Assembly (NCBI GenBank): GCA_963668025.2
Contig: CAXXTH010000017.1
Location: 1,546,230 to 1,610,229 of the forward strand
DNA: 64,000 bases
Direction of reading: 5' to 3'
From: Candidatus Hydrogenedentota bacterium
GTDB taxonomy: Bacteria; Hydrogenedentota; Hydrogenedentia; Hydrogenedentales; SLHB01
A program made the translations under genes and the position numbers. The notes under the pieces are model-generated. The model worked only from the letters and a program-made list of their open reading frames with translations. It did no database searches and was not told the origin of the DNA. This document shows positions 6,934 to 40,361 of this stretch, one piece after another; within the stretch, counting starts at the first letter, position 1, and every line of letters starts with the position of its first letter.

Positions 6934-6935
6934 GC

Positions 6936-8596: not shown

Positions 8597-8598
8597 CC

Positions 8599-12186: not shown

Positions 12187-12228
12187 GTGGTTGGGCCTAC
12201 TCGAAAGGGTTCTAACGTGGTGCAATCG

Positions 12229-14067: not shown

Positions 14068-14077
14068 GCAAATAAAG

Positions 14078-14120
14078 GCCGCGCCAAGCCCGCTTTTGGG
14101 TGGGCGGGCAGGCGCGTGGC
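14078..14120 (+). other. GC-rich intergenic hairpin between pilB and pilT
   Basis: gccgcgcc-aa-gcccgc ... gcgggc-a-ggcgcgtggc; no clear U tract. Confidence 0.4.
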
Positions 14121-14160
14121 GGCGTTTGGTTGAGATGATTTGATCACAGGAGGTGTTTCC

Positions 14161-15288: not shown

Positions 15289-15297
15289 GGTGGTTTG

Positions 15298-17046: not shown

Positions 17047-17075
17047 GCAGGCCATGGCGGCAATAGGAGGCGGCG

Positions 17076-18335: not shown

Positions 18336-18363
18336 GGAAGTGAACGGGATAAGGAGCATGCAG

Positions 18364-19143
18364 ATGAAAGCAAGTCGCGGGTTTACGCTGGTGGAATTGC
18401 TGGTGGTGATTGCCATCATTTCCATCCTGGCGGCGATTGTGGTGCCGCGCCTGACAGGCTGGATAGATAAGGCCAATATGACTAAAGCGGTCGCGGAAGT
18501 AAACAATATTGAATTGTCCGTGCAAGCGATGCTGGCGGATTCAGGCCGCGCGAGTTTTAGCGACATGCTGACGCGGGATGGCCTCGAAGCGATCAAGAAT
18601 GATCCGACAGTAGGCAGCGATCTCATGTACGAATTGCTGCGCCTAGGGCGGAATTCCGAGCTGGCGAGAGGGGATACCACGGCGACCCCTGCTGTCGCGG
18701 GCTATATCCAAACGCCCGTCCTCAATAAGCTGAGAACCAATTATATGGATGTGCCGCTCGACCCATGGGATCAAAAGTACAAATTCTTCCCGGGCCCGTG
18801 GCAGACCGCATGGGGCACTATTGTGTTCCGGGGCTACCGCGAGAATCCGAACGCCACTCACACACGCTTCGACGTGGAGTATGATCCCGATACGGACGGC
18901 TATCTCTATACGGAAGCCATGAAGGATGAGGAAGACGAGAAGATTCCTGGCAATCCCAAGGCCGATGATGTATATGGCTTCCCGGCGTCCAAGGAATTGC
19001 CGTTCTATGTCTGGAGCACCGGCAAGAACATGATGGATGACCAGGCCTGGTCGGGGGCGTCGCCGGATCGGGGTTTTGAAGGCGGCGGCGATGACATCAA
19101 TAACTGGGATAACCAGTCGGGCTGGAGCACGTTCTACGGCTGA
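18364..19143 (+). CDS. Probable major pilin, GspG-like and enlarged
   Basis: RG/FTLVELLVVIAIISILAAIVVP, PLDPWDQKY, VWSTGKN...DDINNW; no Cys; AAGGAG SD suits ATG 18364. Confidence 0.8.
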   Translation: MKASRGFTLVELLVVIAIISILAAIVVPRLTGWIDKANMTKAVAEVNNIELSVQAMLADSGRASFSDMLTRDGLEAIKNDPTVGSDLMYELLRLGRNSELARGDTTATPAVAGYIQTPVLNKLRTNYMDVPLDPWDQKYKFFPGPWQTAWGTIVFRGYRENPNATHTRFDVEYDPDTDGYLYTEAMKDEEDEKIPGNPKADDVYGFPASKELPFYVWSTGKNMMDDQAWSGASPDRGFEGGGDDINNWDNQSGWSTFYG

Positions 19144-19203: not shown

Positions 19204-19480
19204 GGCGTATGGGCAAAGTTTTGGCCGGTGGTCTGCCGGCTAAGGCAATGGGTATAAACGGGTAGGCCATTTTTGGAAACTCCCTGGGGGGGAGCGATGC
19301 ATGCACAGCCACCTATGCGGAATGTGTGAGCACTGCGTTTTATGTGGGCGCTTTTGAAGTGATCTGCTGTTCATGTGGCTAGATGCCCCGAATGCAGCTT
19401 GTTTTATGGTACAAGTGGGGTAGGAAAAAGCGGAAGTCTGGACCGTGCGGACGCATGTAGGAGGTAGCGATAACGTGGAC

Positions 19481-20590
19481 ATGAAACGGCCTAGCTGGCC
19501 CGGTGGCGAGCGGCGCGGGCTGACGCTCATCGAAATGATCATCGTCATGGCTATCGTAGTCATTCTATCTTCTATTGCCCTCCCGGGATTTATCCGGGCA
19601 GGCGCGTTTAACCGGGATGATCTAGGCGACAACGCCCGGGCCGTCTTCTCGGTGTTGCGGGCCGCACGCGTGTACGCGGCCACCTTCAATACCGACACCG
19701 CCGTCATTTATGCCCTCCTAAGCACTCCTGACAGCCGCCTGGACGTGGCCGACAGGGATGATTCCAGCCAAGCCCGCATGCAAATGGTGGCGGACGCCGT
19801 TGGCATGGCGCGCAGAATGACGGACGACGAATTAGAGGATCTGGAGCTGCTCCGCGCGGAAGCGAATCTGGCTGCGCTTTCGGATACGGAACGGGCAAAG
19901 TGCTATGTCCTCGTGAAGTCCGAAGAAGGGGAGCTGCGCCAGCTTTCCCCAAAAGCGGCGATCTGGGGCAAAGTGGACCTGGCTGGGCCGAACGCGGATC
20001 CCGATTACACCACCCTGCTCGAGTCGGAACAGCTCCTAGCACTAGACACCCAGAATAAAAAGAGCATACATGGTTTACAGCTCGTGCGCCTCTACCGGGA
20101 TGCCGGCGAGACGCAGGTCCAGGTGAATGTCTATAACAATTTGGGCCAGGTGACAGGCACGGAAGAAAAGACCATCCAGGAGTATGATTTCATTTCGCCC
20201 CGCGCTACCGATTATACGTTATATCGCAAGGTGACGCCGGATGAAGGCGGGACGGCCATTGCGGATTTGGACATGTATTTCCCGGCCCATGTGTTTAAGC
20301 CAAGCGGCGATATGCGCGTGGACTCGGGCACCACGACCGTGCGGTTTTCCTTGCTGGTCGGCATGGCTCCGATGGCTTTGGTGAATGATCGTTTCTTGGA
20401 TGCCGAAGTAACCGATTATTCCCCCTATTTATTGGACTCGGATGATACGGAAAGCGGCCCCGATCCCGAAAGCCCTGGCTACCTGGATGATCCCGATATC
20501 GCCGATGTAGCGGTACCGGCGGTGCGCATCGAAATGAACCAATTTACGGGCCGGGTGCGGGTAGCCGAGCAGGAGTATCCGTTGCAATGA
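19481..20590 (+). CDS. Minor pilin, FimU/GspH-like
   Basis: RG/LTLIEMIIVMAIVVIL, LRAARVYA, HVFKPSG, IEMNQFTGRVRV C-terminus; GGAGGT upstream. Confidence 0.8.
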   Translation: MKRPSWPGGERRGLTLIEMIIVMAIVVILSSIALPGFIRAGAFNRDDLGDNARAVFSVLRAARVYAATFNTDTAVIYALLSTPDSRLDVADRDDSSQARMQMVADAVGMARRMTDDELEDLELLRAEANLAALSDTERAKCYVLVKSEEGELRQLSPKAAIWGKVDLAGPNADPDYTTLLESEQLLALDTQNKKSIHGLQLVRLYRDAGETQVQVNVYNNLGQVTGTEEKTIQEYDFISPRATDYTLYRKVTPDEGGTAIADLDMYFPAHVFKPSGDMRVDSGTTTVRFSLLVGMAPMALVNDRFLDAEVTDYSPYLLDSDDTESGPDPESPGYLDDPDIADVAVPAVRIEMNQFTGRVRVAEQEYPLQ

Positions 20591-21090
20591 GAAACAATCG
20601 AGGATTTACGCCGCTTGAAGTGTTGATTGCCATGGCGATACTGATCATCGGTATCGTGGGCGCATTCCAACTGTTCCCGCGCGCGCTGGTCCAAGTGCGC
20701 ATGGCGCGCGAGCAAGAGACGGCCTGCAATCTGGCCGATTCGCGCCTTGGCTATCTGCGCGCGGCGGGCGGCCGCATGCTGACCTATCGCTGGCGCGCCC
20801 CTCAAACCTATATGACCGGTGCAGTGCCAACGGATGGCACCGAAGAAATTGATGATGTGCGCCGCCAGACCGATTTCTCGGATCTGAGGAAGGATTCGCC
20901 CGCGTATTTCGAGATGGACCAAGCGACCGCTGATGCGCGGCTCGAATTGTATAAAGGCTATTCGACCACGGTGACTCGAGTAGGCGCGCTGCCCGTGGCG
21001 CATCTGCACCGGGCGGTGTTCACGGTGAATATGCCCTCGGGCAATGAAGTGCGCCCGCTGCGTTTTGTCACCTATATCGCGGAACCTTGA
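20587..21090 (+). CDS. Minor pilin, PilV/GspI-like
   Basis: RG/FTPLEVLIAMAILIIG; small; translationally coupled to the upstream gene (ATGA overlap). Confidence 0.8.
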   Translation: MRNNRGFTPLEVLIAMAILIIGIVGAFQLFPRALVQVRMAREQETACNLADSRLGYLRAAGGRMLTYRWRAPQTYMTGAVPTDGTEEIDDVRRQTDFSDLRKDSPAYFEMDQATADARLELYKGYSTTVTRVGALPVAHLHRAVFTVNMPSGNEVRPLRFVTYIAEP

Positions 21091-21127: not shown

Positions 21128-21210
21128 TTCCCCCCCGCTTACGGGGGAGTAAGTGGGGCATGATTTAGCCCCCCTGTTTCCCTCCATGAATGGGGGGATA
21201 ACGAGGTGTG
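21128..21210. repeat. Two REP-like C-run/G-run hairpins
   Basis: tcccccccgcttacggggga-gtaagtgggg and ttccctccatgaatggggggataacgaggtgtg. Confidence 0.55.
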
Positions 21211-21221
21211 GAGGTGATTTG

Positions 21222-22811
21222 GTGACCATGGACGGCAAATGCAGGCGAGGCGGCTTTACGCTGCCGGAATTGCTGGTGGCCATGGTGGTCATGAGCGTGA
21301 TTATGCTGTCGGTTGGGGCCTTGTTCGTGGCAAGCATCGGGGCCGCCAAATCGGGCTACCAGGGCATCGACGCCAACAATGAATCCCGGACGCTTTTCTC
21401 GACGCTCGAACGGGACATCAACACGGCGTTTACGTCGCGGGATTACGGCGCGTATTACCAGTTCTACGGCACGCCCATCGGCATGAGCTTCGTGGGCACA
21501 GTCCGCGCGTATGAAAAAACCGATTCCGCTGCGAATCTGGGCCGGGTGACGTATGTGCTGCATCTGACGCCAGAGGATGAAGGCCCCTCGTATTTCACCA
21601 CAAAGGTGCTCGATGAGATGGGCACTCCAGATGACGCCACGGACGACGAGTGGAAAGAAGCCTATGTCATGACCTGCTCCCTTCTTCGCTATTATGAATC
21701 TGGTGTGAGCGACTTAGATTCCTATCCTGTGAATTGGAAGGAGCTGCGCTCCGATCCGGAGTTCAATTACGCCAAGATTGACAGCGAATTCAGCGCCATC
21801 GAAAATCTAGCCAATATGGGCTGGGATCAAAAGACCATCGAGGAATTGCTGCGCGCGAAAAAGCGCCAGTTATGGATTCGCATGTTGTCCGAAACGAATA
21901 TGAATCTCGGCTCGGATTCTTTACCTCGTTTTTTCTCCACCGACGACGATACTGGCCTTATCACAAATAAGGCGGAGGATTATATCTTAACGGACAATAT
22001 TTTACTGGGTGTGATTTTAGTGTCCGATGCGGAAAAACGATATGAGACCTTTTTGGAAACCCATCCTGATGGGACGATGGATGATTTGATGGCGCGGCTC
22101 CAATTGGATCTTCTTCGACTTGACAGCGATGACCATTTGTATGCGCCGGATGATTATGACGCCAATATCAGCGCGAATGAGGAAGATTCTATAGGTGATA
22201 AAACAATATTGCGCAAGCGGGCGGAATTCCAATATGGCTTCGCCGACGCGGGACGGACAATCACCATGCCGTATTGGAATGCCGATGGGTCGCTGCCCTC
22301 GACAAAGGCGTTCACCTATGAAAACTCTTATGCGGATACCGCGTCTTACCGAAGTTCCGGTTATCGCAAGGCGTTATCGCTAGGCGCGCCGGTCTTGGCT
22401 TATCCCGAGGATCCGGAGAGCCCGCTGTGGGGCGGCATTTATTACAAAACAACAGATACCGGCACCACGACCGTGGATAATTCCGAGTACGACTATTTGT
22501 TCCCCTTCGATCAGACCGATCCGTCCAATACGGACCCCACGGAGAATCATCCCATTTGGCGGGCGTTTTTATCAAACCCCAATAATGTAGCGTCGACTGA
22601 AACTTATTACCGTCCAGGCCCGGAACAGCGCAGCCCGATGGCTGCGAAGTTTGGCACGCCGTTGAATCCGCGCCTGCCGGAGATGGTGTATGTACGAGGC
22701 CGCTTAGCTTATAAGAGCACGCACATAGGCGGTTCGGATTTATTTTTACCTATTGATTACCTGATGGATGTCCCCGTGGGCCAAATGCGGACGAAATGGT
22801 GGGCGTCATAA
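21222..22811 (+). CDS. Minor pilin, PilW/GspJ-like, enlarged (~530 aa)
   Basis: GG/FTLPELLVAMVVMSVI, LERDI, C-terminal RLPEMVYV; GGAGGT SD before GTG 21222 / ATG 21228. Confidence 0.8.
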   Translation: MTMDGKCRRGGFTLPELLVAMVVMSVIMLSVGALFVASIGAAKSGYQGIDANNESRTLFSTLERDINTAFTSRDYGAYYQFYGTPIGMSFVGTVRAYEKTDSAANLGRVTYVLHLTPEDEGPSYFTTKVLDEMGTPDDATDDEWKEAYVMTCSLLRYYESGVSDLDSYPVNWKELRSDPEFNYAKIDSEFSAIENLANMGWDQKTIEELLRAKKRQLWIRMLSETNMNLGSDSLPRFFSTDDDTGLITNKAEDYILTDNILLGVILVSDAEKRYETFLETHPDGTMDDLMARLQLDLLRLDSDDHLYAPDDYDANISANEEDSIGDKTILRKRAEFQYGFADAGRTITMPYWNADGSLPSTKAFTYENSYADTASYRSSGYRKALSLGAPVLAYPEDPESPLWGGIYYKTTDTGTTTVDNSEYDYLFPFDQTDPSNTDPTENHPIWRAFLSNPNNVASTETYYRPGPEQRSPMAAKFGTPLNPRLPEMVYVRGRLAYKSTHIGGSDLFLPIDYLMDVPVGQMRTKWWAS

Positions 22812-22829: not shown

Positions 22830-25800
22830 ATGCTGGTTGAACAGCGCGTTTGCCGCGTGATGGCAGTAGCACACAGACGTAAGATTGGGAATTTGCGCAT
22901 GAGACGCCAACGCAATCATCAGGGCGCGGCCCTGCTCATCGCCGTGTCGATGTTGTTTATTCTGTTAGCCCTTGTCATTTATTTCTACACGGCCACCCGT
23001 TTCGAGTGGCGCATGGCCAGCAATAAACGCGACACGGTGCAGACCCAGTTCATCGCGGACGCGGGCCTTGCGATTGCGCAGGCGTATCTGCGCAACGACC
23101 TCGAAGCGCATCCCGCATATACCTCGAATGACCACGCCTGGAAATCTTTCTTCAACGGCGCGAGCCTGGCGCGTAAATCGTGGGCCTGGCCGCTCGATAA
23201 CAATGACGACCTTATTCTGCCGGATAATCCCGAGTTTCTGCCTTCGGGCCGCCAAGGGCGCGCCGTGCCCCAGGTGCGCTTCGAAGCGCTGATGCGGAAC
23301 GCCCAGAATGTCCGAGTAAGCCACCCCGAGCTTTCCCTGGAAACATTGCTGTTCGATTACACCATCCCGCGCCAAGACCCAAATTATTTGGACAAACAAG
23401 GCTTTCTCGATGAAAATGACTTGAACGATTTGGGCGACATCATTGGCACCCGCTACACGTTCGCCGCTGACAATCTTCTCCTGGACAAAGACAAGAAGTA
23501 CAGCTTCGCCACCCCCGAATTGTTTGACCCCTATGAAGACTGGAACGCATACACGAATCCCTATCTGACCGAGGCGGAAACCATCCACCGCTGGGCGGAT
23601 GTGGACACGAATGGGGACGGCCTGCGCGACGCCGTGTGGATTCCCATACCGATAGACCTTCCATTCGACAGCGATGGCATCGACAACGACCTCGATGGCT
23701 GGGTCGATGAAGGCCCGAACATGGGCTCGGATGGCATCGACAATGATGGCGATGGCGAGATCGATGAATTTCTCGAAGGCAATCCGCCGGATGGCCTCGA
23801 TAATGACGGGGACGGCATTATTGATGAGATGCCGGAAGAGGACCAGACGAATGGCATTGATGATGACGGCGATGGCGATATTGATGAATCGGATGAGCTG
23901 AATATCCAGCCCGCGCCGGAAACCGCCGTTTTTGTGTATTTCGGCGGCGCGGATGGGCTCGATAATAACGGCGACGGGAATATTGACGATGCCTCCGAAC
24001 AGCGCCTCTTCCTCACTTGCCCGCTCTACATCGACATCAATCGCGATGGCGATATTGATGATACGGACTTCGGTTACATCGGCAAAATCCGGATGGTGCA
24101 GCGCGATGCCGATACGGGCGAGGAGAAGATTGTCGAGCTTATTCCTAGCCCAGGCTCGACGGACGTGGATGTGCTGGATAATGATTACAGCCTGATCGTC
24201 AACGATTCTCGCGGCTATGTATACCCCAAGGATCCGGCTTATCAAACGGATGACGATCTCGCGAACGCGTATCACATCATCAATTCCGACTATATCACGT
24301 CGCCCACGTTTGATATCGAGTTTGATGGCGAAACCATCAATGACGTGCCGTTTGTCATTACCTCGACCGGTGAACCGGTGTGCGAAGTGGCGGGCCGCGT
24401 GGCGGTGTGCATCACGGATGAATCGAGCAAGCCGAATATAAACTACGCGCATGCCCTCGCGTACCGGGATTTCCGCGTGACATCCAGCGATGATGGCGTC
24501 TTGACGCGGGCGCTGGATGAGGGCGCCAGCCCCTTCGAATATGACCTGCGCGTGCTGCCGGATATTGGCCATATCCTGGGTGCTAACATTGCTTCCTTGC
24601 GCACCGGCGCGGCCGATGGCAAGGGATATAACGTGGACGCGGACGCCACGCAAAATCTGCCAAATGACGCGGCGTATGCGTTTGACGTGAGCCTGCCGGG
24701 ATATGGGTTTACGGATGATGATGGCAACGCCTTCTGGATGTCCTATGACGGCCTGGATAACGATGGCGACGGTTTAGTGGATGAAGGCGTGGCGCTGCCT
24801 GCCGCACTCGATTATACCGGCGACGGCATTATTGATTATGACGATGGCGATGTAGGCGGCACGGCGAATAATGGCCTGGATGACCGGTACGAATCCCTGC
24901 TGGGCCATTTCGAGGGCGTCGACGAGCCGCAGGAACTGCGCTTGTTCCGCCCCTACCGGAACCGGCTGGCGGAAAGCTCCGACGTAGACCTGGATGATAA
25001 CGATGTCATCGGCGAGATCGGCCAGTTCGGCGACCGTTTCTACCAGACCCGCACCGAACTCAAGTTGGTGGATGGCATCGGCGGAGAAATCTATAGCGAC
25101 TTGGCGAACCTGTTCACCGTGCATTCCGCGGATAAAAATGACCGGTATAAATTCCTTGACTCCTCGTCCGCGGAGTTGGAAACGCCGGAATTGAGCGGCC
25201 TGAAGCTGAATTACAATTATGCCGTGGCGGACCAGATCGCCACCGCGCTGATCAGCGATTTTGGCTATGCTTCGTCGGTGACACGTCCGGAAGGAGATCT
25301 AGACACGCCGGCCAAGCTGCGGACCGCGTTCTCGGAGGGTTTGCGCCTCGAAGGGCTTACATTTAAATCGCTAGACGCCAGCGGGACGGCGGCGACGAGT
25401 TTGCTGGCAAGCACGCTAAAAGAATTCGCCTACGACGGCGAATTGCGGGCGTCGCAGTTGGCGGTCAATGCCGAGGACAACCGCGACCTTAATCATGCGC
25501 GCACCGAACGCATCACCACCACGCCGGATGATTGGTGGAACAAAGAGATCGACACCAACGCCAACCGGCAAATCACCTATGCCAATACCGGCGTTGAAAG
25601 CATCCGCATCAATGAAGTCATGGTGCGCGCCACGCGCCGCGTCGAGGCGGAAATGCTGGCGGCCTTGCCATCCACCACCGAAGAACAAGAATATAAACGC
25701 TGGTATCCGAAAGGGGCTACGCAAGAATACCGTCCCGCGAATTTCCTGGTGAATCTATTTTCGGGCCTGGCGAATTATCCCGATTTCAATATGGTGCGGG

Positions 25801-28800
25801 AAGCCATTCCGCTATCGCGCATTAGCAGCGCGCAGGAAGGCACCGGCGGGGATACGTATGATATTGGCGATGCCGTAACCGCCCATGGCTGGCCAGGAGC
25901 GGCGCAGACTATTGGCGCGCTTCCGACGCCGTATGGCTATTCCGTCGGAATTCTGGGCCGCCATTACGACACGTATGTGACGCAATACAACGCCAATCCG
26001 TTGAGCAATGCGTATGACGCCTACATGCTGGCCCCATATGTAGGCCCGGCGTCCTACGTGGGCTTCCAAGCGCCCGTGCTTACCATGGACGCCAGCAATA
26101 CGAATCCCTCTTACGAGGGGCGCATCAGCGCCACTTCGCTTTATATTCGAGATAATTCCTACGATGCTGATCTTGACAGGTATGGCTACCATGATGTTCC
26201 CAACATAGTTCAGTTCCGCTTCGGCCCGAGTCCCGCGTTGCCGCCAGGCCGGTATTACCTGATGGTGAACACCTCGAAAAACGGCAATGGCAATACGCTG
26301 GCCACCAAAACCAATGCGACGGTGCTTAAAGGCAAGGAAGACAAGCTTCAATATGTAATTAAGTACGGCTCTGCGGCCAACGATATCATGAGCGATGCGA
26401 TTGGAGACACCATCAAATTCGCTGATTTCCTGGGCAAAGGCAATGGCGAGAGTTATGCGGAAGCCGCCGAATTTCAGCCTTTGCTGGGCACTCCCATTGT
26501 AGGTGCCAGGAAAGCGATGGATTTAGCTACCCCTGCGGGGGTGGATGTGGAAACGGGTTATATGTTTTTGCCTGCGTTGAGCCAGCCGTATACGACTGCT
26601 ACGCTGCCGACAGGCCTCGATTCGACGTATACGGATCTCTACGATAATTACTGCATGCGCCCTGAATTCAACGCCTACACCGTCGTAATCCCGCCATATG
26701 CGGCGGAGGGCGCGGAACAAGACTACCTCTATGTGGGCATCTGGAAAGATCCGGCCTATGCGGATGAAGACCTGGCCATCAACTGGTTCGAGTTCAGCCA
26801 AGAGCCGGACCACGAGTGGGTCGAGCTGGCGAACGTGGGCGCTGAGGCGGTGGACGTGCGCGGGTGGACCCTCGAGGTCGGGCAGTTCGGCGATCCCTAC
26901 CATGAAGACGACCACTTCGTGATGCGCATCGGCCAGCCGCGTGATTCGGAAGGCGCGCTGTATCCGGATGACAAGATCGAGATCGCGCCCGGCGGCACGC
27001 TGCTGCTGGCGATGGATAAATACGATGTGGGCGCGGACCAATACGCCCAATCCGATAGCTGGCCCAATGATTACGGCGTGCTGTTCCGCAATGGCATCGG
27101 ATTGTGCGCCACGAATACTTCGACGACCAGCACGCAATGGAAAGTGAAACCGCGCACGGACTCCACCAGCACAATCGAGCGGTATGGATTTCCCATGTTC
27201 GGATTGGTAAATGCCCCTCTAGGCGAAAGCGTCACCGTGCCGCAATCGCCGATGTTTGACCCGCGTCCCTCGTTGACGACTGGCTTGGCGAATCCGAATT
27301 TGAACAGGCCGTTCAATAATCTCGGAAGTGTCTTTTTCCGGCCCATGGCGTCCACTGTGGTGGGCAGCATTGACGCCGCCGCCGTTTATAAGGATTTCAT
27401 TGATCGCGACGGGGACGGCGTAGCCGATTTGAGCACGTTGGATTCGGCCACGCAGGAAACGGCGGCGTATGGCAGTTTCCCGAATGATTATCCGCCGGGC
27501 TATGACTACATAGACACCACCTCGGCATCCACCAATATGTTCAGCACACTCACCGAGACGTTCACGGATGGCCGGGTGCGCCAGATATGGCCCACAAAGG
27601 GCGAAAAGCCGTGGGACCGCATTGTGCAGGTGGAATCGTCGCGGCTGCGCTATCTGTCGAGCCTGGAAGATTTGGCCGATATGGTGCTGGATGGCGGCGT
27701 GCTGCCGAATTACCCCGAGGAAGATTATTCGGACAACGACAGCGACTACTCCGTGCTGGCGGACCTGCATGCGGGCTGGGGCAGCGACCAGATCGACAAC
27801 GATTCCGATGATGAGACAGACGAAGATGATGAGCAAGAACTGGATGCCGAGGGATTAGGCGACGGCGTGGACAATGACGGCGACGGCGTCGTCGATGAAG
27901 CGGGCGAGGGCACGGATGAAGGCCGTGCGCGCCTGTATGCCAAGCGTATGGAAGATCCGCTCTCGGATGTCGTCACCACGAAATACGCCAAGCCTATTCC
28001 AGGCGCATTGGATTCCCGGCAAGCCGCGTTCCGGGTCGGATACTACGAGTCCGCCACATCGACGGATATCGAATACCACTCGCTTACCGAAGGCCAAGAT
28101 ATTGTTTCTTCAGGAAATGATAACTATGAATCTGATTATGACTATCTGGGCAACGCCGCGGACTCCCCCGAGTGGAAGGCGTTCACGGAACGACGGTATT
28201 TCCCCGGCGATTGCGTGGTGCTGACGCTCTACGAAGGCGCGGTGGGCAATGGCCGCATCGTGGACCGCCTGACCTATACCCAGCGCGATGTCGAGAACCG
28301 TTCGGATGAGGATCTCGAGCTGGACGCCAATTACGCGGGATGCACGTATACGGACGAGGCGGGCAATCGCGTGGCGCATTATGGTTCCACGGTAACGCCG
28401 GCTATTTGGCCGGACAACACCATGGGCGTGGACTTCTATCGCAGCCTTGAACGGAAACACCCGTTGTATACGGGCGACCTGCACGGCACGCAGAACCGCT
28501 GGGAGGCCACGGATGGCAATTATGACGATTGGGATTCCGGGCAGGGCCCGTCGTTCTTGAGCGCTTCCGCAGTCATCCCATGGACCAGCGGACTGGGAGT
28601 GGACACGCCCTATACCGGGTATGCGCCGAATGTGTCCGGCTCGCCGCTACGAATGAATTTCTACCAGAAGGGCATGGAAGCGGAACCGAATTCCACGGAC
28701 GCGGCGCTGAATCACTTCTACAATACAGCGGCGGCTGAGAATCAGCGGCCATTGCGTACGCTACGGGATGCGGACCAGCTTCCTGATTGGAATTTCAGCC

Positions 28801-30722
28801 GGGCGTCTTTGCGGAACCGCTCCTACGTCTCGCCGGGTGACTTGGTCCGCATGCCGCACTTGGCCATGACGGACAATCTATTCCCCGCAGGCGCGTCGGT
28901 GCTGCGTGCGGAACGGACGGACCAGGTGTTGGTGGGCCGGGGTTCGAAAGATAATGTGAAGGATATAGACGCCCTGGTGACATCGGGCACGAGCGCGGCC
29001 ATCGAGCTGAGCTGCGCGACAGCGGACTTCTACCAGGTATGGCCATATCCGACGGATCTGACCGATCCGACCGATAGAATATGGAACGCGAAATTCAACG
29101 CCTATCCTCGAGCCTGGTCGCCTATTTTCCTGTACAACCTGTATACCGGCACGGATGCCACGGATGCCCCTGGAAAATTCCTGAGTGAGGTGGAAGGATC
29201 ACCGCAGCGTGATGGTTTTGGCGTTGCTGGCGTGGACGTGCAGCTCAATTTTCTGTTCAAGACGCCCGACCAGTATCCGGTGCAGTTCAACACGCTGAAC
29301 CAGTTCAAATTGGCGTTGGATGATACCTCATTGAAGCCCTACTTGCGCCGCTGGCCCATCGAGAAGCGGGCCGTGATGTATGTGTCCGCGAACCTGAAAG
29401 AATTCGTGCCCAGCAATGAGGATCCGAATTACATGAGTCCTACGGACTCTGATGCGCCAGCCATTCCACCCGCCGAGGCCCTGTTCGTATGGGACGCCGA
29501 TGACGGCGTGGAAGACGGGGCGTATGACGTATATATCGCCACGGCGGATAATCTCGAACGGCTGAAGAACCTCTCGGACACCGCGAAGGCGAATCTCTTG
29601 TTCAGCCGGAGCGATGCGGGCTTGGAAGACACTGTGTTTGACGCGTATTCGTTGCTGGCCGCCGATGCGGCGACGGACCCGAGCGGGCTGGCGGTGACGG
29701 TCGAAATGTTCACGGATCAAAACGGCGACCGCCGCTGTTGGGAGAATGCCGCATCGAGCAACGTGCTCACGCCAACACCGGAAGGCTTGGACGCCATGCG
29801 TGCGACGGAATCCGCGGGGATGCTCGCGGCGGCGGAACCGAGTCCGGACGGATTGATTTATTATGGCCGCGTCGAGGTGGTGAATAATTACCTGGCGCTG
29901 TTTATCCGCAACTGGGGCCGCCCGAAAGAATTGAACCGCTTCTCGCGCGTCATTTTGGCATCGCCTCAACGGTCGGGCGGGCGCATCAACATCAACACGG
30001 CTGAAACCGCGATCGCGGCCACCACCGGGAGTGACACGACGATTACTACGTACGGCCGCGTCACGGGCGGCAAGGTGTTCAATCCATTAACCGGCATGCC
30101 GGGGATGTTGGCCTATAATTTTGATCCCGATTCGGCATCGGCGATGGTGCCTGCCGACGATGTGGATTTGGGCTCGAACAATGGCCCAGGCACATCCTCC
30201 CCGGATCTGTATGCCAATGTCGAGCCTGTACAGCAGTCCACCAGTGATCGGGCGTTTATTTATGACCAGGCTTTAGTCCGTTCTGAACAGCTCATTGCTG
30301 GTATGGCTTTCTCCAGGAGATTTGGAGGCGAGACAACGGAGCCGGTGCGTGATATGGCCGGGAAACCTTGGTGGTTCGACGGGCGGTATTACAAGACTCC
30401 GTCGCAATTGCTGACGCTGGATGGCTCGGAGGCCGATCCGGAACTTATCTCGCCAGGGCGCTTGGTGTACAACACGTTTTCGGGTGAAGACGAAGAACAA
30501 TACGAAGAAAAGGTGTTCCGGTTCTCGCGGATGGCGAACTTGCTGACCACGCGCTCAGATGTGTTCGAGATCAATATCCTGGCGCAGAGCGGGTATCTGT
30601 CCGCGACATCGCTGCAAGATGACAACGGCGATGGGCAGATCGACGAAGATGACCGCGTGGATTACCGGAACGACTTCGTGGTCACGGGCGAAAAGAAGAT
30701 GCGCTCCGTGTATGAACGATAG
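22830..30722 (+). CDS. Giant PilX/GspK-scaffold tip pilin (~2600 aa) with acidic Ca-type repeats and a lamin-tail-like domain
   Basis: QG/AALLIAVSML without Glu5, ADAGLAIA, ITDESSKPNINYA, ELKLVDGIG, RININTA, LTTRSDVFEI; about nine DGxDNDGDGxxDE repeats; INEVM...EWVELANVG..VDVRGWTL. Start 22830 or 22899. Confidence 0.8.
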   Translation: MLVEQRVCRVMAVAHRRKIGNLRMRRQRNHQGAALLIAVSMLFILLALVIYFYTATRFEWRMASNKRDTVQTQFIADAGLAIAQAYLRNDLEAHPAYTSNDHAWKSFFNGASLARKSWAWPLDNNDDLILPDNPEFLPSGRQGRAVPQVRFEALMRNAQNVRVSHPELSLETLLFDYTIPRQDPNYLDKQGFLDENDLNDLGDIIGTRYTFAADNLLLDKDKKYSFATPELFDPYEDWNAYTNPYLTEAETIHRWADVDTNGDGLRDAVWIPIPIDLPFDSDGIDNDLDGWVDEGPNMGSDGIDNDGDGEIDEFLEGNPPDGLDNDGDGIIDEMPEEDQTNGIDDDGDGDIDESDELNIQPAPETAVFVYFGGADGLDNNGDGNIDDASEQRLFLTCPLYIDINRDGDIDDTDFGYIGKIRMVQRDADTGEEKIVELIPSPGSTDVDVLDNDYSLIVNDSRGYVYPKDPAYQTDDDLANAYHIINSDYITSPTFDIEFDGETINDVPFVITSTGEPVCEVAGRVAVCITDESSKPNINYAHALAYRDFRVTSSDDGVLTRALDEGASPFEYDLRVLPDIGHILGANIASLRTGAADGKGYNVDADATQNLPNDAAYAFDVSLPGYGFTDDDGNAFWMSYDGLDNDGDGLVDEGVALPAALDYTGDGIIDYDDGDVGGTANNGLDDRYESLLGHFEGVDEPQELRLFRPYRNRLAESSDVDLDDNDVIGEIGQFGDRFYQTRTELKLVDGIGGEIYSDLANLFTVHSADKNDRYKFLDSSSAELETPELSGLKLNYNYAVADQIATALISDFGYASSVTRPEGDLDTPAKLRTAFSEGLRLEGLTFKSLDASGTAATSLLASTLKEFAYDGELRASQLAVNAEDNRDLNHARTERITTTPDDWWNKEIDTNANRQITYANTGVESIRINEVMVRATRRVEAEMLAALPSTTEEQEYKRWYPKGATQEYRPANFLVNLFSGLANYPDFNMVREAIPLSRISSAQEGTGGDTYDIGDAVTAHGWPGAAQTIGALPTPYGYSVGILGRHYDTYVTQYNANPLSNAYDAYMLAPYVGPASYVGFQAPVLTMDASNTNPSYEGRISATSLYIRDNSYDADLDRYGYHDVPNIVQFRFGPSPALPPGRYYLMVNTSKNGNGNTLATKTNATVLKGKEDKLQYVIKYGSAANDIMSDAIGDTIKFADFLGKGNGESYAEAAEFQPLLGTPIVGARKAMDLATPAGVDVETGYMFLPALSQPYTTATLPTGLDSTYTDLYDNYCMRPEFNAYTVVIPPYAAEGAEQDYLYVGIWKDPAYADEDLAINWFEFSQEPDHEWVELANVGAEAVDVRGWTLEVGQFGDPYHEDDHFVMRIGQPRDSEGALYPDDKIEIAPGGTLLLAMDKYDVGADQYAQSDSWPNDYGVLFRNGIGLCATNTSTTSTQWKVKPRTDSTSTIERYGFPMFGLVNAPLGESVTVPQSPMFDPRPSLTTGLANPNLNRPFNNLGSVFFRPMASTVVGSIDAAAVYKDFIDRDGDGVADLSTLDSATQETAAYGSFPNDYPPGYDYIDTTSASTNMFSTLTETFTDGRVRQIWPTKGEKPWDRIVQVESSRLRYLSSLEDLADMVLDGGVLPNYPEEDYSDNDSDYSVLADLHAGWGSDQIDNDSDDETDEDDEQELDAEGLGDGVDNDGDGVVDEAGEGTDEGRARLYAKRMEDPLSDVVTTKYAKPIPGALDSRQAAFRVGYYESATSTDIEYHSLTEGQDIVSSGNDNYESDYDYLGNAADSPEWKAFTERRYFPGDCVVLTLYEGAVGNGRIVDRLTYTQRDVENRSDEDLELDANYAGCTYTDEAGNRVAHYGSTVTPAIWPDNTMGVDFYRSLERKHPLYTGDLHGTQNRWEATDGNYDDWDSGQGPSFLSASAVIPWTSGLGVDTPYTGYAPNVSGSPLRMNFYQKGMEAEPNSTDAALNHFYNTAAAENQRPLRTLRDADQLPDWNFSRASLRNRSYVSPGDLVRMPHLAMTDNLFPAGASVLRAERTDQVLVGRGSKDNVKDIDALVTSGTSAAIELSCATADFYQVWPYPTDLTDPTDRIWNAKFNAYPRAWSPIFLYNLYTGTDATDAPGKFLSEVEGSPQRDGFGVAGVDVQLNFLFKTPDQYPVQFNTLNQFKLALDDTSLKPYLRRWPIEKRAVMYVSANLKEFVPSNEDPNYMSPTDSDAPAIPPAEALFVWDADDGVEDGAYDVYIATADNLERLKNLSDTAKANLLFSRSDAGLEDTVFDAYSLLAADAATDPSGLAVTVEMFTDQNGDRRCWENAASSNVLTPTPEGLDAMRATESAGMLAAAEPSPDGLIYYGRVEVVNNYLALFIRNWGRPKELNRFSRVILASPQRSGGRININTAETAIAATTGSDTTITTYGRVTGGKVFNPLTGMPGMLAYNFDPDSASAMVPADDVDLGSNNGPGTSSPDLYANVEPVQQSTSDRAFIYDQALVRSEQLIAGMAFSRRFGGETTEPVRDMAGKPWWFDGRYYKTPSQLLTLDGSEADPELISPGRLVYNTFSGEDEEQYEEKVFRFSRMANLLTTRSDVFEINILAQSGYLSATSLQDDNGDGQIDEDDRVDYRNDFVVTGEKKMRSVYER

Positions 30723-30909: not shown

Positions 30910-33900
30910 ATGATGAATCGTAGCATGCATGCATGTATGGCCTTGTTGCTGGTATGCGCGGGCGGGACGGCTTGGGGGCAGACGACCGTATATGTCTCGC
31001 CGGACATTGCCAATTCCGCCGTGTTTCCAGCCACGTCGACCCCGGTGTATACGAGCATCCAGGAAGGAGTGGACGCGGCGGTCACTGCGTCGCGCAACGC
31101 GAGCCAAACCGTGCGCGTGGCCATCGAAGCGGGAGAATGGACGCTCACGGACCCGATTGAAGTTCCCGCGGATGCAAATATCCAGATTGTTGGAGCTGTA
31201 GCGGAGGACAGCGCCCGCGATGCCGCCGGAAGGCCGTGGGAAGTCATCATCGATGGCGGCGGGTACTTCGTTGCTTCGGCGGAAGATATCAACGGCGTTT
31301 TTTATATCCACACGGATACAAGCGGATTTCCCTCGAAATATCAGGGCGATGGCGCCAGTAATTTATTACTCGAAGGCTTGACCATCCGCAACGCGAAGTA
31401 TGGCGTGCAGATTCGCGGCACATCGGGCGCGGATGGTGCGGCCATTCAGCCTACGCTGAGCCGTTGCATCATCTTGGGCGGCTCCACGCAAACAGCGGGC
31501 GTCCAAGTCGAGCGCAACGCCGCGCCGCTGCTGGTGAACTGTTCCATCACCGGCTATTCGGTCGCCGCCACTACGGACGCCACCGCGAAAGATTACGAAA
31601 GCGGCATTGGCGTCCATGTCACCGCACCGCCGAACACCACCGCGAAGATATACACGGATATCCTGTTCTGTTCGATCATGATGAACTCGGACTACGGCGT
31701 GCTGGTCGATACCGGTGCGAATGCGCGGGTGCGCAATACGCTGGTCTACCGTAATGGCGATGGGCAAAACGGAACGTATGGCGCGGAAGGCGGCTTGGTT
31801 TGGCGCAATAGCGCGGCATTTATCGACCCCAGTTATGGCCCCTATGACGCCACGACCCCTGCGAAGATCAATGGATACGATTTGCTGGGCGGCGGCTCCG
31901 CCTCGGATGTAAAAGTCTACTTCGGCCCCCTGGATAAGGCGGAGGCGGTTACGCCTGCCGCTGGCAGCACCGAGACGCAGCTCAATGTGACCGTGCCGGC
32001 CTCGTATCTGGGCGCGCCGGGCCCGGTGGATGTGTATATCCAGCGGGGTGACGGCTTGCGGATCGCCGTCAAGGAAGCCTTCAACTATACGGCATCCACA
32101 ACAGAGCTGCCGCAAGTAACATCGGTTGCACCGGCCAAAGGCCCTGTGATCACGGCAAACACCGTCGATCCGCTCGAAAAGCGCGGCAACTGGGTGTATG
32201 TGTATGGCACGGGCTTCGAGAAGAACTGCCAGGTCTGGTTCGATGTGGATAATCCCTCGGGCCGCACGCTGGATATTACGAAGGATCTCCGCTCGGAGAA
32301 AGTCACGTGGATGTCTTCCTCCGAATTATATGTCAAAGTGCCCGCACAGCCCACGGCGGTAGGCCCGGTGGATGTGTTTGTACGCAATACATCGACCGCG
32401 ACGCCGCAAGTGAGTCCCGCGGGGACATTGCGCGAATATGAGTTCGTAGCTACGCTCACCCTGCCACGCCCGTCGATTGTGCAGGTGACCCCAAATATCG
32501 TACGCGAGTTGGATGCTTCCACCGGAACGGGCAACGAATCCCAGACCGTGGATATCGTGGGTTGGAACTTTGGCCCCGGCAAGCGGGAACTCCCTGCTGG
32601 TTCCGGCGTGTGGTATCCGCAGCCGGTGATTGTCAGGATTGGCGGCGTGGTCTGCGAATACGATGGGTTAATCGCCGACACCAGCCAAACCGTATCGGAT
32701 CCAGATAATGGCATTTTCCAAGGTGTGGATGACGCCAACGGCGATTCCTTCGACACGATTCAAAATGTGGTGGTGCCGGAGGCGTTCTACGGCTCGGGCG
32801 GCTCATACGATGTCGAAGTGGTCAACTTCGACGGCCAGTCCGATACGCTTCCCAATGGGCTTACATACTATGGCGACGGCGTGCCGGCCATTGATGACTC
32901 CTCCAAGTTCCCCTGGCGGCCCGCGAATTTCGCGGCCTTCGCCACGACGGGAACGGGCAGCGCCGCCACGCGGGTGCTGTATGGCTCCGGCTTTGATACA
33001 GGCCTGGGGATCACGTTCACGCAAGGCGCTGCTACGCGAACGCTCAATGGCGCGACAGCGGGCGTGGTGCTGCCCGGTGAGGCCGTAGCGCCGCATGTGA
33101 AACATACCCAGCGGGCCATCACGTTCTCCATGCCCTCATCGCCCAGCGAGATCGCCACGGCATTTGGCGACGCCGCTGGCGCGTTGAATGTGGCCATCGC
33201 AAACGTGCGCAATGTCGCCGGAGACGACACTTCCGTTGCAGAAAAAACGGCGTCCACCACCTTCAATTGGGTGGCGGCGGCGAATGATTTCAGCATTACC
33301 CAAGTGGCCGCAAATGCCTCGGGAACGCCCGCATGGCGGATGATAGGGAAAAATCTGGCTGCGGACATGCTGGTGTATGTCCAGGAAGAAGCGGCAATTA
33401 ATGTGGAGTTGGACGGCGCGGACTTGGTGTTTGATTTGCCCGAATCCGGCCTCGATGGCGTCTACGGCGCGGTGGATGTGGCGGCCAAGAGCGGCGACAA
33501 CTATTACGTGCTCGAGGGCGGGCTATTCCTGCCGCGCACCGACGCTACCGGTGCGGCGATTGCGCCTACCATTTCCTCCATCGAACCGCGCGTGCTGCCG
33601 CAAAGCGGCGGCGTGGAAGTGACGGTTCATGGCTCGGATTTCATCGGGCCAGCGGATGGGGCGCACTCGGCCACGCAGGTGTCTTTTGTGAGCGGTACAA
33701 CGACTCGAGCGGACAGCATCTCCGTGGCGGGCACATACCAGGTGGTTTCCGATTCCGAGATCACCTTTACGCTCGCGGCATCCCCGTTAAGCGGCGTGTA
33801 CGATGTGCAAGTCCAGCATGTCGCCGTAGCCGGTTCTACGGCGGTCTCTACGACGGCGGACACGCTATCCGATGCGGTTACGTTTGCAAGTTCCGTGTCT

Positions 33901-36900
33901 TCCATCACCGCCGTATTCCGCTGGGATCTGGCGCCGGCTCAGACCGGCCCGCCCAATTATGGGTACGCCGATTCCGCGACTGCCGCCGCACAAGGCCAGC
34001 GCTGGGGCGCGGTCCAGGGCGGCGATGTGCTGGTGATTCACGGCGCGGGATTCACCGCCGCGACGAAAGTATGCATCGGCGATGCGGAAGCGCGCGTGCT
34101 GGCTTCGGAGACGGTCACGGACCGGCTGGGCCATTCGTTCACCGCGCCAGCGGCATCCGCCACGGCGCTCTATGTCTTGACGCCATCCGCGCCGCAGGGA
34201 TTGCCGGGAACCTTCCCCGTGTCCGTGGTGAATGCCGACGCCGCATCCATCGCGCCCGAGTCCCAATGGTTCACCTATATCATGGACGGCCAGCCGGAGA
34301 TTACCTCCATCGAGCCGAATTACCTCGAGCGTGACGCCTCGAACAACGCCTCGGATACGAACGAGGGCGTGTATTTCACGATTCGCGGATACAATTTCAA
34401 TAACATGGTGGATGTGTTGTTTGACGTGGAAGGCGGGACAGATGACGCGACTGCTGAGCTGGCATGTTTCGCCGTTTCGCCCTACGAGATCGTCGTGAAA
34501 GCCCCTGCTTCGGACGCCACACTCGGCCTCAGCGATACGGATTACACCGATGGGGACGGCTTGGTCCAGGTCAATATTTCCGTGCGGAATGATGTAGGCG
34601 GCAGTGCCGCCGCGAAACAAACGAGCGCGGAAGCCCCTATCTATTATTACGATAGCGACACGATAACGCCCCCCAGCACGAAACTGCCGGTGCTCGAATT
34701 CAATGATGTCTACCGCAATTTCCGGGACTACATCAACGCAAGCCCCGGCGTGGGCTGCATTTCGGTGGACCCCATGCTCGACCCAGGGCCGGAAACCGTG
34801 AACGCGGCGGGGCCGAAAGCGGCGGTGCAGGCGGAGGAGAAAGATTGGTGGCCGGGCAAGCTTTCCGTGCGCGACACGGATAATGGCGTGGCCGACAACC
34901 CCCTGCGCGACAAGGCGGGCGATTATAATGCGGGGCAGTATGGATATGAAGACCTTGAACTGGATGGCCGCCCGAATTATGTAAGCCTGACGGGCGAATC
35001 CATCCAAGGCACGGGCGATGTCGGCTCCGCTAAATCGGATATCGGCGCGGACGAGATCACGCTGGGCGGTTTGACCGAGTTGAATTGGTATTACTGCAAC
35101 GTGACGCCGAATCCGGTGGGCGGCGAGGCGCTGCAAGCGGGCGGTCTGGATGTCGAGATCCGCATCCAAGGCCTGACGGGGCCGCTGGACGATACGAGAG
35201 GCATCTTCATTGTTCCGCAAGGCGGGAAGCCGGGCTTGCATAAAATTCCAATTACAATCACCTCTCACAACGGAAATAGCGTGTACTATGGCACGAATAC
35301 CAAGGCGATCCCGACGGTGCTCGACCGCATGAGCACTAGTGGTGCATGGGGGAGTGACACAGGTGCGCCCCGGCAGGGCGACATCATCGCCGACGGGCAT
35401 GCGGCGGTGTATATCAATGTCTTGGGTTTACATAACAGCGGAACATTTACAGGAAGCACTCTGGGACTCACGCTTCGAGACAACGGCCATATCACAAGCG
35501 AAGCCGTGACGGGGCGGCATTTCCTGATCGACACGATTCCGCCGCGCATCTACATCGAGTCATACAGCAAGGGTACGGATTATTATCTCACCCCGTGGGA
35601 TTTGATCCCATCGGGTACGTTGAATGACACCTATACGACCCAGATGATGGACACCGCGATCGGCGTGGCCAATCATGGTTTCACCCTGCCCGCCGTGACC
35701 TGGCCCGCTGGAAATTGGTGGAATGCCGCTGCATATCTGGGAGTGACGAATGTGAACTACGCCGCCCCCGTGGAATGGCAGGGGATTATCGTGAATCCCT
35801 TCCGCGTGGCGGGCACGCTCACGGCGCGGACCCAAAAGCCGCAGATCTTCCTCAATACCGGCTCGCTCGCGAATGGGCTGTATTCGGGGGATGATGGCCC
35901 CGATCTCGAATTCACGCTGCGGGCGTGGTTTATCGATCCCGTGGTGACGGTCGCGCCCACGGATACGCCCGCACCCTATTTCGACTCCACGAATTACGTT
36001 ATAGCAGGTTCGGCTAGAACTGGTTCGGACGATGATCCTTCCTATCCACGTAACGAGAGCAATTTCGCCGAGAACTTGAACACCCGCGAAGTGTCGGGTT
36101 TTACCTCGGGCGTTGTGACGCGCACGGGCGATAATGATTTGCTGGTGAATGAATACACATCCGCGAGATGGTTTTTCACACAGGGCGCGGACACCCTTGC
36201 CAGCGGGGCAACGAAGCCTAATGTGACGGCGACGTTCACAGGTCAGGCCGGTTCCACGGAGATAGTCCCACCGGTCAGTTCCACTATTACTCTCGATCTG
36301 GATACGGGCGATATCGCCGCGAATGCGGGGTTCAACCGCTCGAATCCTTCGAGTGTGACGCGATACAACAACAATGTGATGCTGGCGGAATGGAAGCTCT
36401 CCAACCTTGACTGGAAAATCGCGCACTCGGGGCCATTCACCCTCGAGTTCAAGCTGGGCGGGCGCGATAGGGCGGGCAATATCGCATCAACCGAGTCGCT
36501 CCTCGAACCGTTGCGGATCTATTGGGGCATTGATGTGCAGACCCGGTTCCTCACGACGCCCACTTCGTCGGATAACATCTCGTACACCTGGGAGCTGGTG
36601 CGGGGTTCCACGGCGGACCCGGTGACGATGGCGGAACCGAGCACCGTCGCGGGGCCAAAGCCGTTGTTCCTGCCGCGCCTGTACGTGAATACGGACATGC
36701 AGAACCAGAGCATCGACGGGCGTTACCAGTATTTATCCGGCACCGGGTTTAACTGGACCACGGCCACCTCGATTGACCGCAGTGGTTTCTACCAAGCGCT
36801 CAAAAACGCCGGGATGGATCCCGATAACAACGAGTTCTACGTGTTGTTTGTCGTGTTGGGCGCGGACGAGGCGGGCAACGTCGAGCCGTGGCGGCGGAAG

Positions 36901-40275: not shown

Positions 40276-40361
40276 CTTTTAGTCGGTTTAATAGTGCGTG
40301 TGTGCGCTGGGCCAGCAATGAGGCATAACAAGGCGGGGCAGGCCCTCCCGGATGTGAGGCG

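Follow-up and report, generated by a model that had tools for sequence, protein, structure and literature searches.

The stretch of DNA analysed here (the window, 64,000 nucleotides of contig CAXXTH010000017.1 in assembly GCA_963668025.2) carries two complete type IV filament systems, a type II secretion system (T2SS) operon and a pilus-type operon with three ATPases, arranged head to tail on the same strand. The pilus-type operon includes an open reading frame (ORF) of 2630 amino acids (aa), which a preliminary description, made from the sequence alone, took for a tip pilin with a GspK scaffold built around more than 2000 aa of inserted domains. We propose that this giant serves the type IVa-like pilus of a Hydrogenedentota-like host as an apical minor pilin of the K type (GspK/PilX/PilK class), with a built-in acidic head of 286 kDa, and we place the probability of this reading at roughly 0.72. 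It is supported by transitive profile homology, conserved gene order, the absence of Glu+5 from the mature N-terminus, and a confident model of a 1039-aa relative. Below, P0001 denotes the giant of the window, and other P-numbers (P0208, P0225, P0226, P0296 and so on) denote its relatives in the databases.

Extent and anatomy of the giant

A direct check of the sequence recovered the ORF and all six GspK motifs named in the preliminary description, in order, far apart and at the coordinates reported there. Their counterparts are found in the 372-aa GspK of the window (8599-9717), which belongs to its own T2SS operon and scores 144.2 bits with the NCBIfam model NF037980 (T2SS_GspK).

Giant ORF P0001: 22830..30722, + strand; 2630 aa, ATG start, zero internal stops
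GAALL motif: aa 32 (nt 22923) in P0001; aa 9 in the window GspK
ADAGL motif: aa 76 in P0001; aa 47 in the window GspK
ITDESSKPNINYA motif: aa 528 (nt 24411) in P0001; aa 104 in the window GspK
ELKLVDGIG motif: aa 743 (nt 25056) in P0001; aa 228 in the window GspK
RININTA motif: aa 2385 (nt 29982) in P0001; aa 264 in the window GspK
TTRSDVFEI motif: aa 2573 (nt 30546) in P0001; aa 330 in the window GspK

The true start of P0001 is likely Met24 (nt 22899), because the hydrophobic segment starts near residue 9 in homologues. Predicted cleavage behind Gly31 would give a mature form of 2599 aa and 286 kDa with a pI of 4.18. GC content stays at 0.54-0.59 throughout the 7.9-kb open frame; no large DNA repeats were found across P0001, and neither the tandem-repeat scan nor the promoter/terminator scan returned anything above chance.

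A global hhalign alignment, which maps P0001 30-2630 onto P0225 1-1038, divides the giant into the blocks listed here. Conservation and occupancy were calculated over 74 aligned giants.

Leader and alpha1: 22899..23159, + strand; Met24, a short basic leader, Gly31 and a hydrophobic helix at aa 32-110; aa 30-110 correspond to P0225 1-80; conservation 0.62
Insertion between alpha1 and beta1: 23160..23594, + strand; aa 111-255 (145 aa), no P0225 counterpart; conservation 0.25, occupancy 0.58
Acidic loop and beta1: 23595..23651, + strand; aa 256-274, DVDTNGDGLRDAVWIPIPI; corresponds to P0225 81-99 (model strand 95-99); conservation 0.76, the highest of any block
Insertion in the beta1-beta2 loop: 23652..24383, + strand; aa 275-518 (244 aa), with 6 of the 9 DxDxDG-type acidic motifs in P0001; no P0225 counterpart
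Beta2 and first helical subdomain: 24384..25529, + strand; aa 519-900, with ITDESSKPNINYA and the ELKLVDGIG helix-hairpin-helix; aa 519-898 correspond to P0225 104-315
Main inserted head: 25530..29828, + strand; aa 901-2333 (~1430 aa), between the two helix-hairpin-helix subdomains; beta-rich in the P0225 model (310-937, nearly all strands)
Lamin tail domain, first half: 26673..27149, + strand; aa 1282-1440, with an invariant SQEPDHEW; corresponds to P0225 539-647
Insertion within the lamin tail domain: 27150..28211, + strand; aa 1441-1794 (~354 aa), with an acidic DNDGDG stretch; no P0225 counterpart; conservation 0.29, occupancy 0.53
Lamin tail domain, second half: 28212..28547, + strand; aa 1795-1906, with a near-invariant DFYRSLERKHP...TDGNYDDW; corresponds to P0225 674-727; conservation 0.61
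C-terminal scaffold: 29829..30719, + strand; aa 2334-2630, corresponding to P0225 881-1038; three strands, the RININTA helix-hairpin-helix subdomain (nt 29982-30002) and an EF-hand-like loop, DDNGDGQID
Closing beta-hairpin, TTRSDVFEI...KKMRSVYER: 30546-30719, + strand; ends P0001; its counterpart is the hairpin at 1011-1037 in the P0225 model

All elements of a GspK-type scaffold appear to be kept in the giant: a Gly-ending, prepilin-like leader, an alpha1 helix without Glu+5, a beta1-beta2 hairpin with the motif D-E-x-S-K-x-N-x-N, two helix-hairpin-helix subdomains, and a closing C-terminal hairpin (..VYER). The mature N-terminus, QG|AALLI, has Ile at position +5, and Glu+5 occurs in none of 110 family N-termini (58 have Ile, 42 Val, 4 Thr, 3 Leu and 3 Met). 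The missing Glu+5 is described as a mark of K-type apical pilins (PMC13533445).

Between these elements, as judged from the alignment, about 2100 aa are inserted at at least four sites in nested fashion: between alpha1 and beta1, between beta1 and beta2, in the first helical subdomain, which is broken by extra acidic loops of 10-44 aa, and as the ~1430-aa block. In this respect the earlier picture of a stretched scaffold is not supported: what separates the scaffold elements on the block map is not one insert but several nested ones. Conservation among the giants follows the same division, with the highest values in scaffold blocks (0.62-0.76) and the lowest in insertions (0.25-0.34), where occupancy is 53-60%. 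The sandwich at 316-438 of P0225 has no counterpart in P0001.

A lamin tail domain and acidic DxDxDG motifs are all that is recognisable in the inserts. The Pfam model LTD (PF00932) matches P0001 aa 1311-1407 with 27.4 bits, under its cut-off of 34.3, and only over the first three quarters of the profile, because the ~354-aa insertion splits the domain. LTD is above cut-off in P0208 (36.7 bits) and P0225 (36.9 bits), and its match lies below cut-off in 10 of 18 giants. The DxDxDG motifs, to judge from the motif alone, may bind calcium, although the EF-hand matches in the PDB were non-significant. The adhesive or sensory role that the preliminary description gave to the inserts finds no backing in this inventory or in a model of aa 1282-2340, which has a mean predicted confidence (pLDDT) of 52.

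Homology and fold evidence connecting the giant to GspK

The giant belongs to a family of similarly large proteins. A word-indexed protein search gave 113 matches of 1446-4603 aa, 112 of them (1.5-3.4 kaa) with E <= 1.7e-93; the best giant relative is 41% identical across 99% of P0001, and the source names given among the 112 are, without exception, Candidatus Hydrogenedentes or Hydrogenedentota. The 113th match (E 3.9e-7), an unrelated PilY1-domain protein, was not accepted as a family member. A phmmer search with the last 304 aa of P0001 against 1.84 billion representatives found 192 relatives, and all 150 of the matches listed are the same family or its fragments, with no bridge to GspK. 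A genome scan located the giant at 70 loci, mostly titled Candidatus Hydrogenedentota and including closed chromosomes. Apparently complete members (n = 106) are 1282-3369 aa long (median 2628 aa), and the 74-sequence alignment is conserved along its entire length. In their source annotation the Hydrogenedentota giants are hypothetical or lamin tail domain proteins.

Some loci (L004, L017, L021, L033, L053 and others) carry unexpected titles although their operon is that of the Hydrogenedentota records: several are titled uncultured Nitrospirales/Nitrospiraceae, and one locus each is titled Bathyarchaeia, Rhodothermaeota and FCB group. These titles probably reflect a placeholder label or binning error, not the true distribution. 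Another irregular entry is P0116 (412 aa), which shares 98% identity with the giant's C-terminus (aa 2330-2630 of the window protein) and begins with ~110 unrelated residues that resemble a JAB/MPN metalloprotease motif (HSHPD...); a chimeric gene call or an assembly join elsewhere is the probable explanation.

Compared directly with GspK, P0001 shows likeness at its N-terminus only. BLASTP aligns aa 24-90 to the window GspK (E 4e-5), with all other segments at E >= 3.4, and hhalign of a profile of 74 giants against the same sequence reaches 87.5% probability, confined to the first 94 columns. NF037980 matches P0001 at aa 31-105 (E 2e-8) and the N-terminus of 16/16 relatives tested, with a top score of 46.4 bits. 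PilX_N (PF14341, gathering score 25.5) reaches 17.0 bits at aa 31-81 with the whole protein and 19.5 bits with a tile, both below cut-off; it is above cut-off in 2/18 giants (27.9 and 28.7 bits) and also in P0221 and P0302. Pfam N_methyl has no match in P0001, and a PDB search with a profile of 20 giants returned lanmodulin only (E 0.2). Of the models against which the preliminary description had proposed to score the protein, namely TIGR02600, PilX_N and T2SSK, each is below cut-off or without a match for P0001.

The connection to GspK becomes visible through intermediate homologues. P0208 is a complete short member (1303 aa), collinear with P0001 minus aa ~126-515, and in it the NF037980 match reaches through the D-E-A-T-K-L-N-V-N motif (residues 7-139, profile positions 2-104). 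Relatives of P0208 include P0225 (1039 aa, source name PulK), P0226 and P0227. P0225 is above the Pfam cut-offs for LTD (36.9 bits against 34.3) and for T2SSK (31.7 bits against 24.2), the latter at residues 940-970, which align to RININTA; it also matches HHH_3 with 46.5 bits, and both of these matches begin where RININ aligns. Its own relatives (n = 77) are mostly ~1000 aa long, come from Candidatus Omnitrophota and have source names of GspK or lamin tail domain protein, and precomputed annotation places PF03934 on 30 of the 77.

Profile comparison joins these proteins to the giants on one side and to GspK on the other. Aligned by hhalign, the giants profile and the Omnitrophota profile match with 100% probability and E 4.6e-86 over 921 columns, so that both are nearly fully covered, and the Omnitrophota profile matches the window GspK with 96.3% probability and E 2e-9 from the N-terminus through DDEYGKLNLN. 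The giants profile also matches P0296 (743 aa) with 99.0% probability, pairing P0001 511-892 with P0296 106-306. In this alignment ELKLVDGIG falls on the helix-hairpin-helix of P0296, which scores 28 bits with HHH (cut-off 24) and 25.7 bits with T2SSK_1st, just under 26.2. By way of these intermediates, five of the six motifs align in homologous register, and the sixth, the C-terminal hairpin, corresponds at the level of fold only, via the relative's model. Because a smaller block of ~630 aa is already found in the ~1000-aa Omnitrophota GspK-like proteins, the giants appear from their sequences to be an expansion of an older insert-bearing K pilin.

AlphaFold2 modelled P0225 (67 sequences) with a mean pLDDT of 93.2 and a predicted TM-score (pTM) of 0.90. 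The model runs from a helix (2-64) through two strands (95-99 and 105-115), helices (146-302), a beta-rich region (310-937) and further helices (947-998) to a hairpin (1011-1022 and 1025-1037). In this model P0225 follows the GspK plan: alpha1 is followed by a hairpin, a helical domain that forms an insert, and strands that close the sheet. The two helical subdomains are separated by ~630 aa of beta-rich structure. Searched against the PDB with Foldseek, the model is most similar to multi-sandwich proteins (reelin, CBM6, CUB, Cry, CDTb, jelly-roll; E from 3.6e-8), and a further match is chain T of 9a1f, a model of the XcpGHIJK pseudopilus, with probability 1.00, E 1.8e-4, 284/295 columns and a target-normalised TM-score of 0.45.

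For P0001 itself we predicted the assembly of scaffold pieces, with aa 30-115, 250-300 and 510-900 as separate chains and aa 2330-2630 as their partner. The interface score (ipSAE) was 0.58 (0.61, 0.34 and 0.58 in individual runs) against 0.02 for the best of three controls, with a partner pLDDT of at least 50 and at least 81% agreement of contacts between runs. When this score was calibrated, 116 of the 157 solved complexes passed the mark, as did 2 of the 215 mismatches; passing scores of 0.60 or below came from only 18 of the 157 solved complexes and from both of the passing mismatches. Likeness to GspK complexes that are already solved may also feed into the score. The preliminary description had suggested asking whether the N- and C-terminal pieces form a GspK fold, and this result is weakly in favour. 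The GspK scaffold around more than 2000 aa of inserts, as then proposed, therefore owes its standing to transitive homology, gene order, the lack of Glu+5 and the relative's model, and to a lesser degree to the giant's own pieces.

Operon context, proposed function and alternative explanations

The giant is encoded last in an H-I-J-K minor pilin cluster beside the major pilin and assembly genes, where a K-type tip pilin would be expected.

T2SS operon: 40-11840, + strand; secretin, GspE, F, G, pseudopilins, GspK, L-like protein, M
Pilus-type operon: 12187-45350, + strand
Upstream machinery: 12187..18335, + strand; PilB-like, PilT-like and second PilB-like ATPases and a PilC platform protein; order conserved across loci
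Major pilin: 18340..19143, + strand; 267 aa, RG|FTLVE
H-like minor pilin: 19445..20590, + strand; 381 aa, RG|LTLIE; tblastn match in 27/70 loci
I-like (PilV/GspI-like) minor pilin: 20587..21090, + strand; 167 aa, RG|FTPLE
J-like (PilW/GspJ-like) minor pilin: 21153..22811, + strand; 552 aa, GG|FTLPE; ends 19 nt before the giant ORF
Beta-helix/TIG protein: 30910..37554, + strand; 2214 aa, Sec signal peptide, right-handed beta-helix and TIG domains; in the usual position of PilY1
PilM fusion: 37840-40275, + strand; 811 aa, long C-terminal extension; Amuc_1101-like, 276 bits against a cut-off of 650
Downstream machinery: 37840..45350, + strand; PilM fusion, two small ORFs and a TPR-secretin of 1108 aa (Amuc_1098-related, under cut-off)

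The four pilins upstream have Glu+5 where the giant has Ile. The I-like and J-like genes stand directly upstream of the giant in all 38 loci that include its N-terminus together with 2.5 kb or more of upstream DNA. On the other side, 31 of the 45 loci with at least 3 kb of downstream sequence carry a relative of the 2214-aa protein behind the giant, and PilM lies downstream in 28/33 loci. The 2214-aa protein contains no PilY1/PilC domain, and the pilus-type operon encodes no PilY1-domain protein; the role of the 2214-aa protein may be that of partner, substrate or additional adhesin.

One of the neighbouring genes, a 334-aa ORF at 40362-41366, encodes a single N-terminal hydrophobic segment and a Gly/Met/Pro-rich tail (MPGMPGMGGG...), matches Amuc_1100 weakly (E 3.7e-4) and is kept after PilM in 20 loci. 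Elsewhere in the window, the ORF of a solute-binding protein (573 aa, TTG start; 48102-49823) overlaps an ABC permease (47683-48528) by ~430 nt; its Pfam match begins at residue 188, and its real start is probably much later. An FG-GAP/VCBS repeat protein of 454 aa is encoded at 56287-57651, near an M23 peptidase (58230-59285, minus strand); neither seems to be connected with the pilus operon.

Under the reading of the giant as a K-type apical pilin, a prepilin peptidase would cleave it, and the mature protein would nucleate a tip complex with the H-, I- and J-like pilins and occupy the distal end of the filament. The acidic head (pI 4.2), probably stiffened by calcium, would be displayed outside and bind an external ligand, for which a polysaccharide, a cell surface or DNA are candidates. 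The strand that closes the sheet stands at the very end of the chain, so tip assembly would have to await export of the entire head, much like C-terminal strand addition in the model for GspK and CpaL (PMC13533445). The giant would enter first and only once, so it would not need to fit the filament body, and upon PilT-like retraction its head would stay outside the secretin.

Several observations weigh against this reading. Pfam T2SSK (PF03934) and T2SSK_1st (PF21687) are absent from the whole of P0001, from 7 overlapping tiles of it and from 18 giants, and NF037980 scores only 34.1 bits on P0001 against a cut-off of 130, at the N-terminus alone. Direct profile alignment of the C-terminal half of the giants to the window GspK is weak (21-37% probability under relaxed settings), and a PDB sequence search with their C-terminal profile returned no GspK, only EF-hand loops with E ~1. 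The link between the C-terminal hairpin and GspK consists of the relative's model and one Foldseek match, which ranks 26th with a root mean square deviation of 11.3 behind beta-sandwich proteins, and chain T of 9a1f is a chain that we take to be XcpX (GspK) from its length. The Omnitrophota intermediates were compared by sequence and model. AlphaFold2 gave an unusable model of P0001 aa 1282-2340 (41 sequences; mean pLDDT 52.0, pTM 0.48, 588 of 1059 residues below 50), and protein atlas searches with aa 1405-1800 and 1900-2340 produced no usable match; ligand binding by the inserted domains is speculative, and so is the passage of a folded 286-kDa head through the secretin. Finally, no prepilin peptidase gene is present in the 64-kb window.

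The helix-hairpin-helix subdomains suggest a more specific function, namely that the head and its two ComEA-like subdomains form a DNA receptor at the tip that catches DNA for uptake, as ComZ does at the tip of the Thermus competence pilus; we consider this unlikely. Against solved structures, the Omnitrophota profile matches the helix-hairpin-helix of EEPD1 (E 9.8e-11) and ComEA (E 2e-5) better than GspK (E 0.016). HHH_3 scores up to 76 bits in P0226, the giants keep the L-x-G-x-P-G hairpin (consensus FNPLxGxPGVL), and lamin tail domains are known from bacterial extracellular nucleases. ComZ is moreover cited as an insert-bearing K-type pilin (PMC13533445). However, no HHH Pfam match was found in P0001 or in 18 giants, the strong acidity of the protein (pI 4.18) speaks against bulk DNA binding, and comEC/comEA-type uptake genes were not seen in the window. 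Canonical GspK shares the helix-hairpin-helix fold and has no known DNA role.

The scaffold itself might also suit a secretion pseudopilus, in which the giant would cap a short periplasmic filament under the secretin and act as piston head or docking platform, perhaps for the 2214-aa protein. Its closing strand is provided in cis, as in T2SS GspK and unlike the PilY1-dependent PilK (PMC13533445), and the source annotations of its relatives are GspK or PulK. The operon lacks a PilY1-domain protein, and the Sec-dependent beta-helix/TIG protein directly downstream, kept in the proportion of loci given above, might be its client. This explanation is nonetheless improbable in an operon that encodes a PilT-like retraction ATPase, a PilM/PilN-type fusion, a 267-aa major pilin and a PilQ-like TPR-secretin, and that adjoins a separate, complete T2SS with its own 372-aa GspK (40-11840). 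A periplasmic head of 286 kDa beneath a secretin gate would, in addition, be without precedent.

The confinement of matches with known pilin models to the N-terminal ~75 aa, together with the difficulty of imagining the head passing through a secretin, could also point to an exapted anchor, with a GspK-like N-terminus that never enters a filament and only tethers to the inner membrane a large protein of the periplasm or cell surface. We regard this as very improbable: beta1, beta2 and the C-terminal scaffold are the most conserved parts of the 74 aligned giants, the place behind the H-, I- and J-like pilins is invariant (38/38 loci), and keeping a sheet-closing terminal hairpin under purifying selection makes little sense for an anchor. 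The idea that assembly joined a small GspK gene to unrelated ORFs (the preliminary description had itself raised an assembly fusion), or that a run of pseudogenes is read through, has nothing but the unusual length of the ORF as its origin, and we reject it because of the 7.9-kb open frame with even GC, the 112 collinear relatives from independent assemblies, the 70 loci with their conserved gene order and the end-to-end conserved alignment.

Within the reading as a K-type apical pilin, a bolder version addresses the head that is too large to pass the secretin folded. The chain might be threaded out unfolded or domain by domain and fold outside through calcium bound at the DxDxDG sites, giving a permanent harpoon head that is never fully retractable, while the late C-terminal strand licenses assembly. 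RTX adhesins ratchet out of type I systems and offer an analogy for such calcium-driven export. We think this version doubtful; if true, it would represent a new mode of pilus biogenesis and make the giants the largest known family of pilin-fold proteins (up to ~3.4 kaa).

Every type IV filament is capped and nucleated by K-type pilins, and the field still asks how large a load such a cap can bear and how a bulky tip gets through the secretin. In the giants, the GspK scaffold tolerates ~2100 aa of nested insertions and still keeps its closing C-terminal strand; the family counts more than 100 complete members of 1.3-3.4 kaa, and its gene keeps a constant position among the pilus genes of a phylum without cultured members. 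Proteins of 370 aa, ~1000 aa, ~1300 aa and 2600-3400 aa form a size series for the model of strand addition as a checkpoint. For the Hydrogenedentota, whose lifestyle is poorly known, the head is a probable ligand-binding organ, and ~100 giants now called hypothetical or lamin tail domain proteins gain an annotation.

Comparison with known systems

A full-text literature search found no description of Hydrogenedentota pili, of lamin-tail pilins or of the Omnitrophota relatives, only unrelated matches; a paper on Omnitrophota (PMC10066038) mentions type-4a pili, and GspK is absent from the parts of it available to us. The preliminary description named Verru_Chthon cassette protein A (TIGR02600) as the closest precedent. 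That protein is likewise large, has a GspK-like N-terminus and is encoded behind pilin-like cassette genes. As a candidate for membership P0001 fails, with 18.7 bits against a cut-off of 332.3 (P0001 aa 32-104, 69 of 1296 profile positions), and in 16 relatives TIGR02600 scores at most 33.1 bits. CpaL and ComZ (PMC13533445) are nearer, as are the Omnitrophota GspK proteins.

Modular pilins such as PilB and PilC of Streptococcus sanguinis share with the giant the use of a pilin as carrier that presents a functional module (PMC8179133). In these proteins the module is placed on the C-terminus via a linker, the IPR012902 motif is present and the most extreme example is 860 aa long (PMC8179133). 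P0001, in contrast, has no N_methyl match, holds its modules as insertions from which the chain returns to close the pilin sheet, and is three times larger.

Judged from alignment and the relative's model, the giant agrees with T2SS GspK/XcpX (PDB 3CI0 and 5VTM; NF037980) in several features. Both lack Glu+5, have an NxN motif behind the first hairpin, interrupt the pilin sheet with two helix-hairpin-helix subdomains and supply the closing strand in cis, and the gene of each follows that of a J-type pilin. GspK is 300-370 aa long, with an alpha-domain of ~180 aa as its sole insertion (PMC13533445), compared to 2630 aa for P0001, and it belongs to a T2SS operon, whereas the gene for P0001 is found among the PilT-like, PilM and PilQ-like genes of a pilus-type operon.

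The ~1000-aa lamin-tail GspK proteins of Omnitrophota (e.g., P0225), known from database annotation, are homologous to the giants from end to end, with the same order of parts. They are 2.5 times smaller than the giant and lack the insertions between alpha1 and beta1, between beta1 and beta2 and within the lamin tail domain; they keep the sandwich (P0225 316-438) that is missing in P0001, and they pass Pfam T2SSK, which the giants fail.

CpaL of Caulobacter (~600 aa) and ComZ of Thermus resemble the giant in having a functional domain that follows the pilin sheet and precedes the C-terminal strand of their own that closes it, in their tip location and in the absence of PilY1 (PMC13533445). Large insertions in K homologues of PilY1-less systems are described for CpaL, for Thermus ComZ and for Vibrio cholerae (PMC13533445). 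The inserts of CpaL and ComZ reach ~470 aa at most and occupy one site, compared to ~2100 aa at at least four nested sites in the giant; the comparison made here is one of plan. On the reading proposed here, the giant is an extreme form of the known insert-bearing K-type pilins, ComZ and CpaL, and is new in the extent of its insertions.

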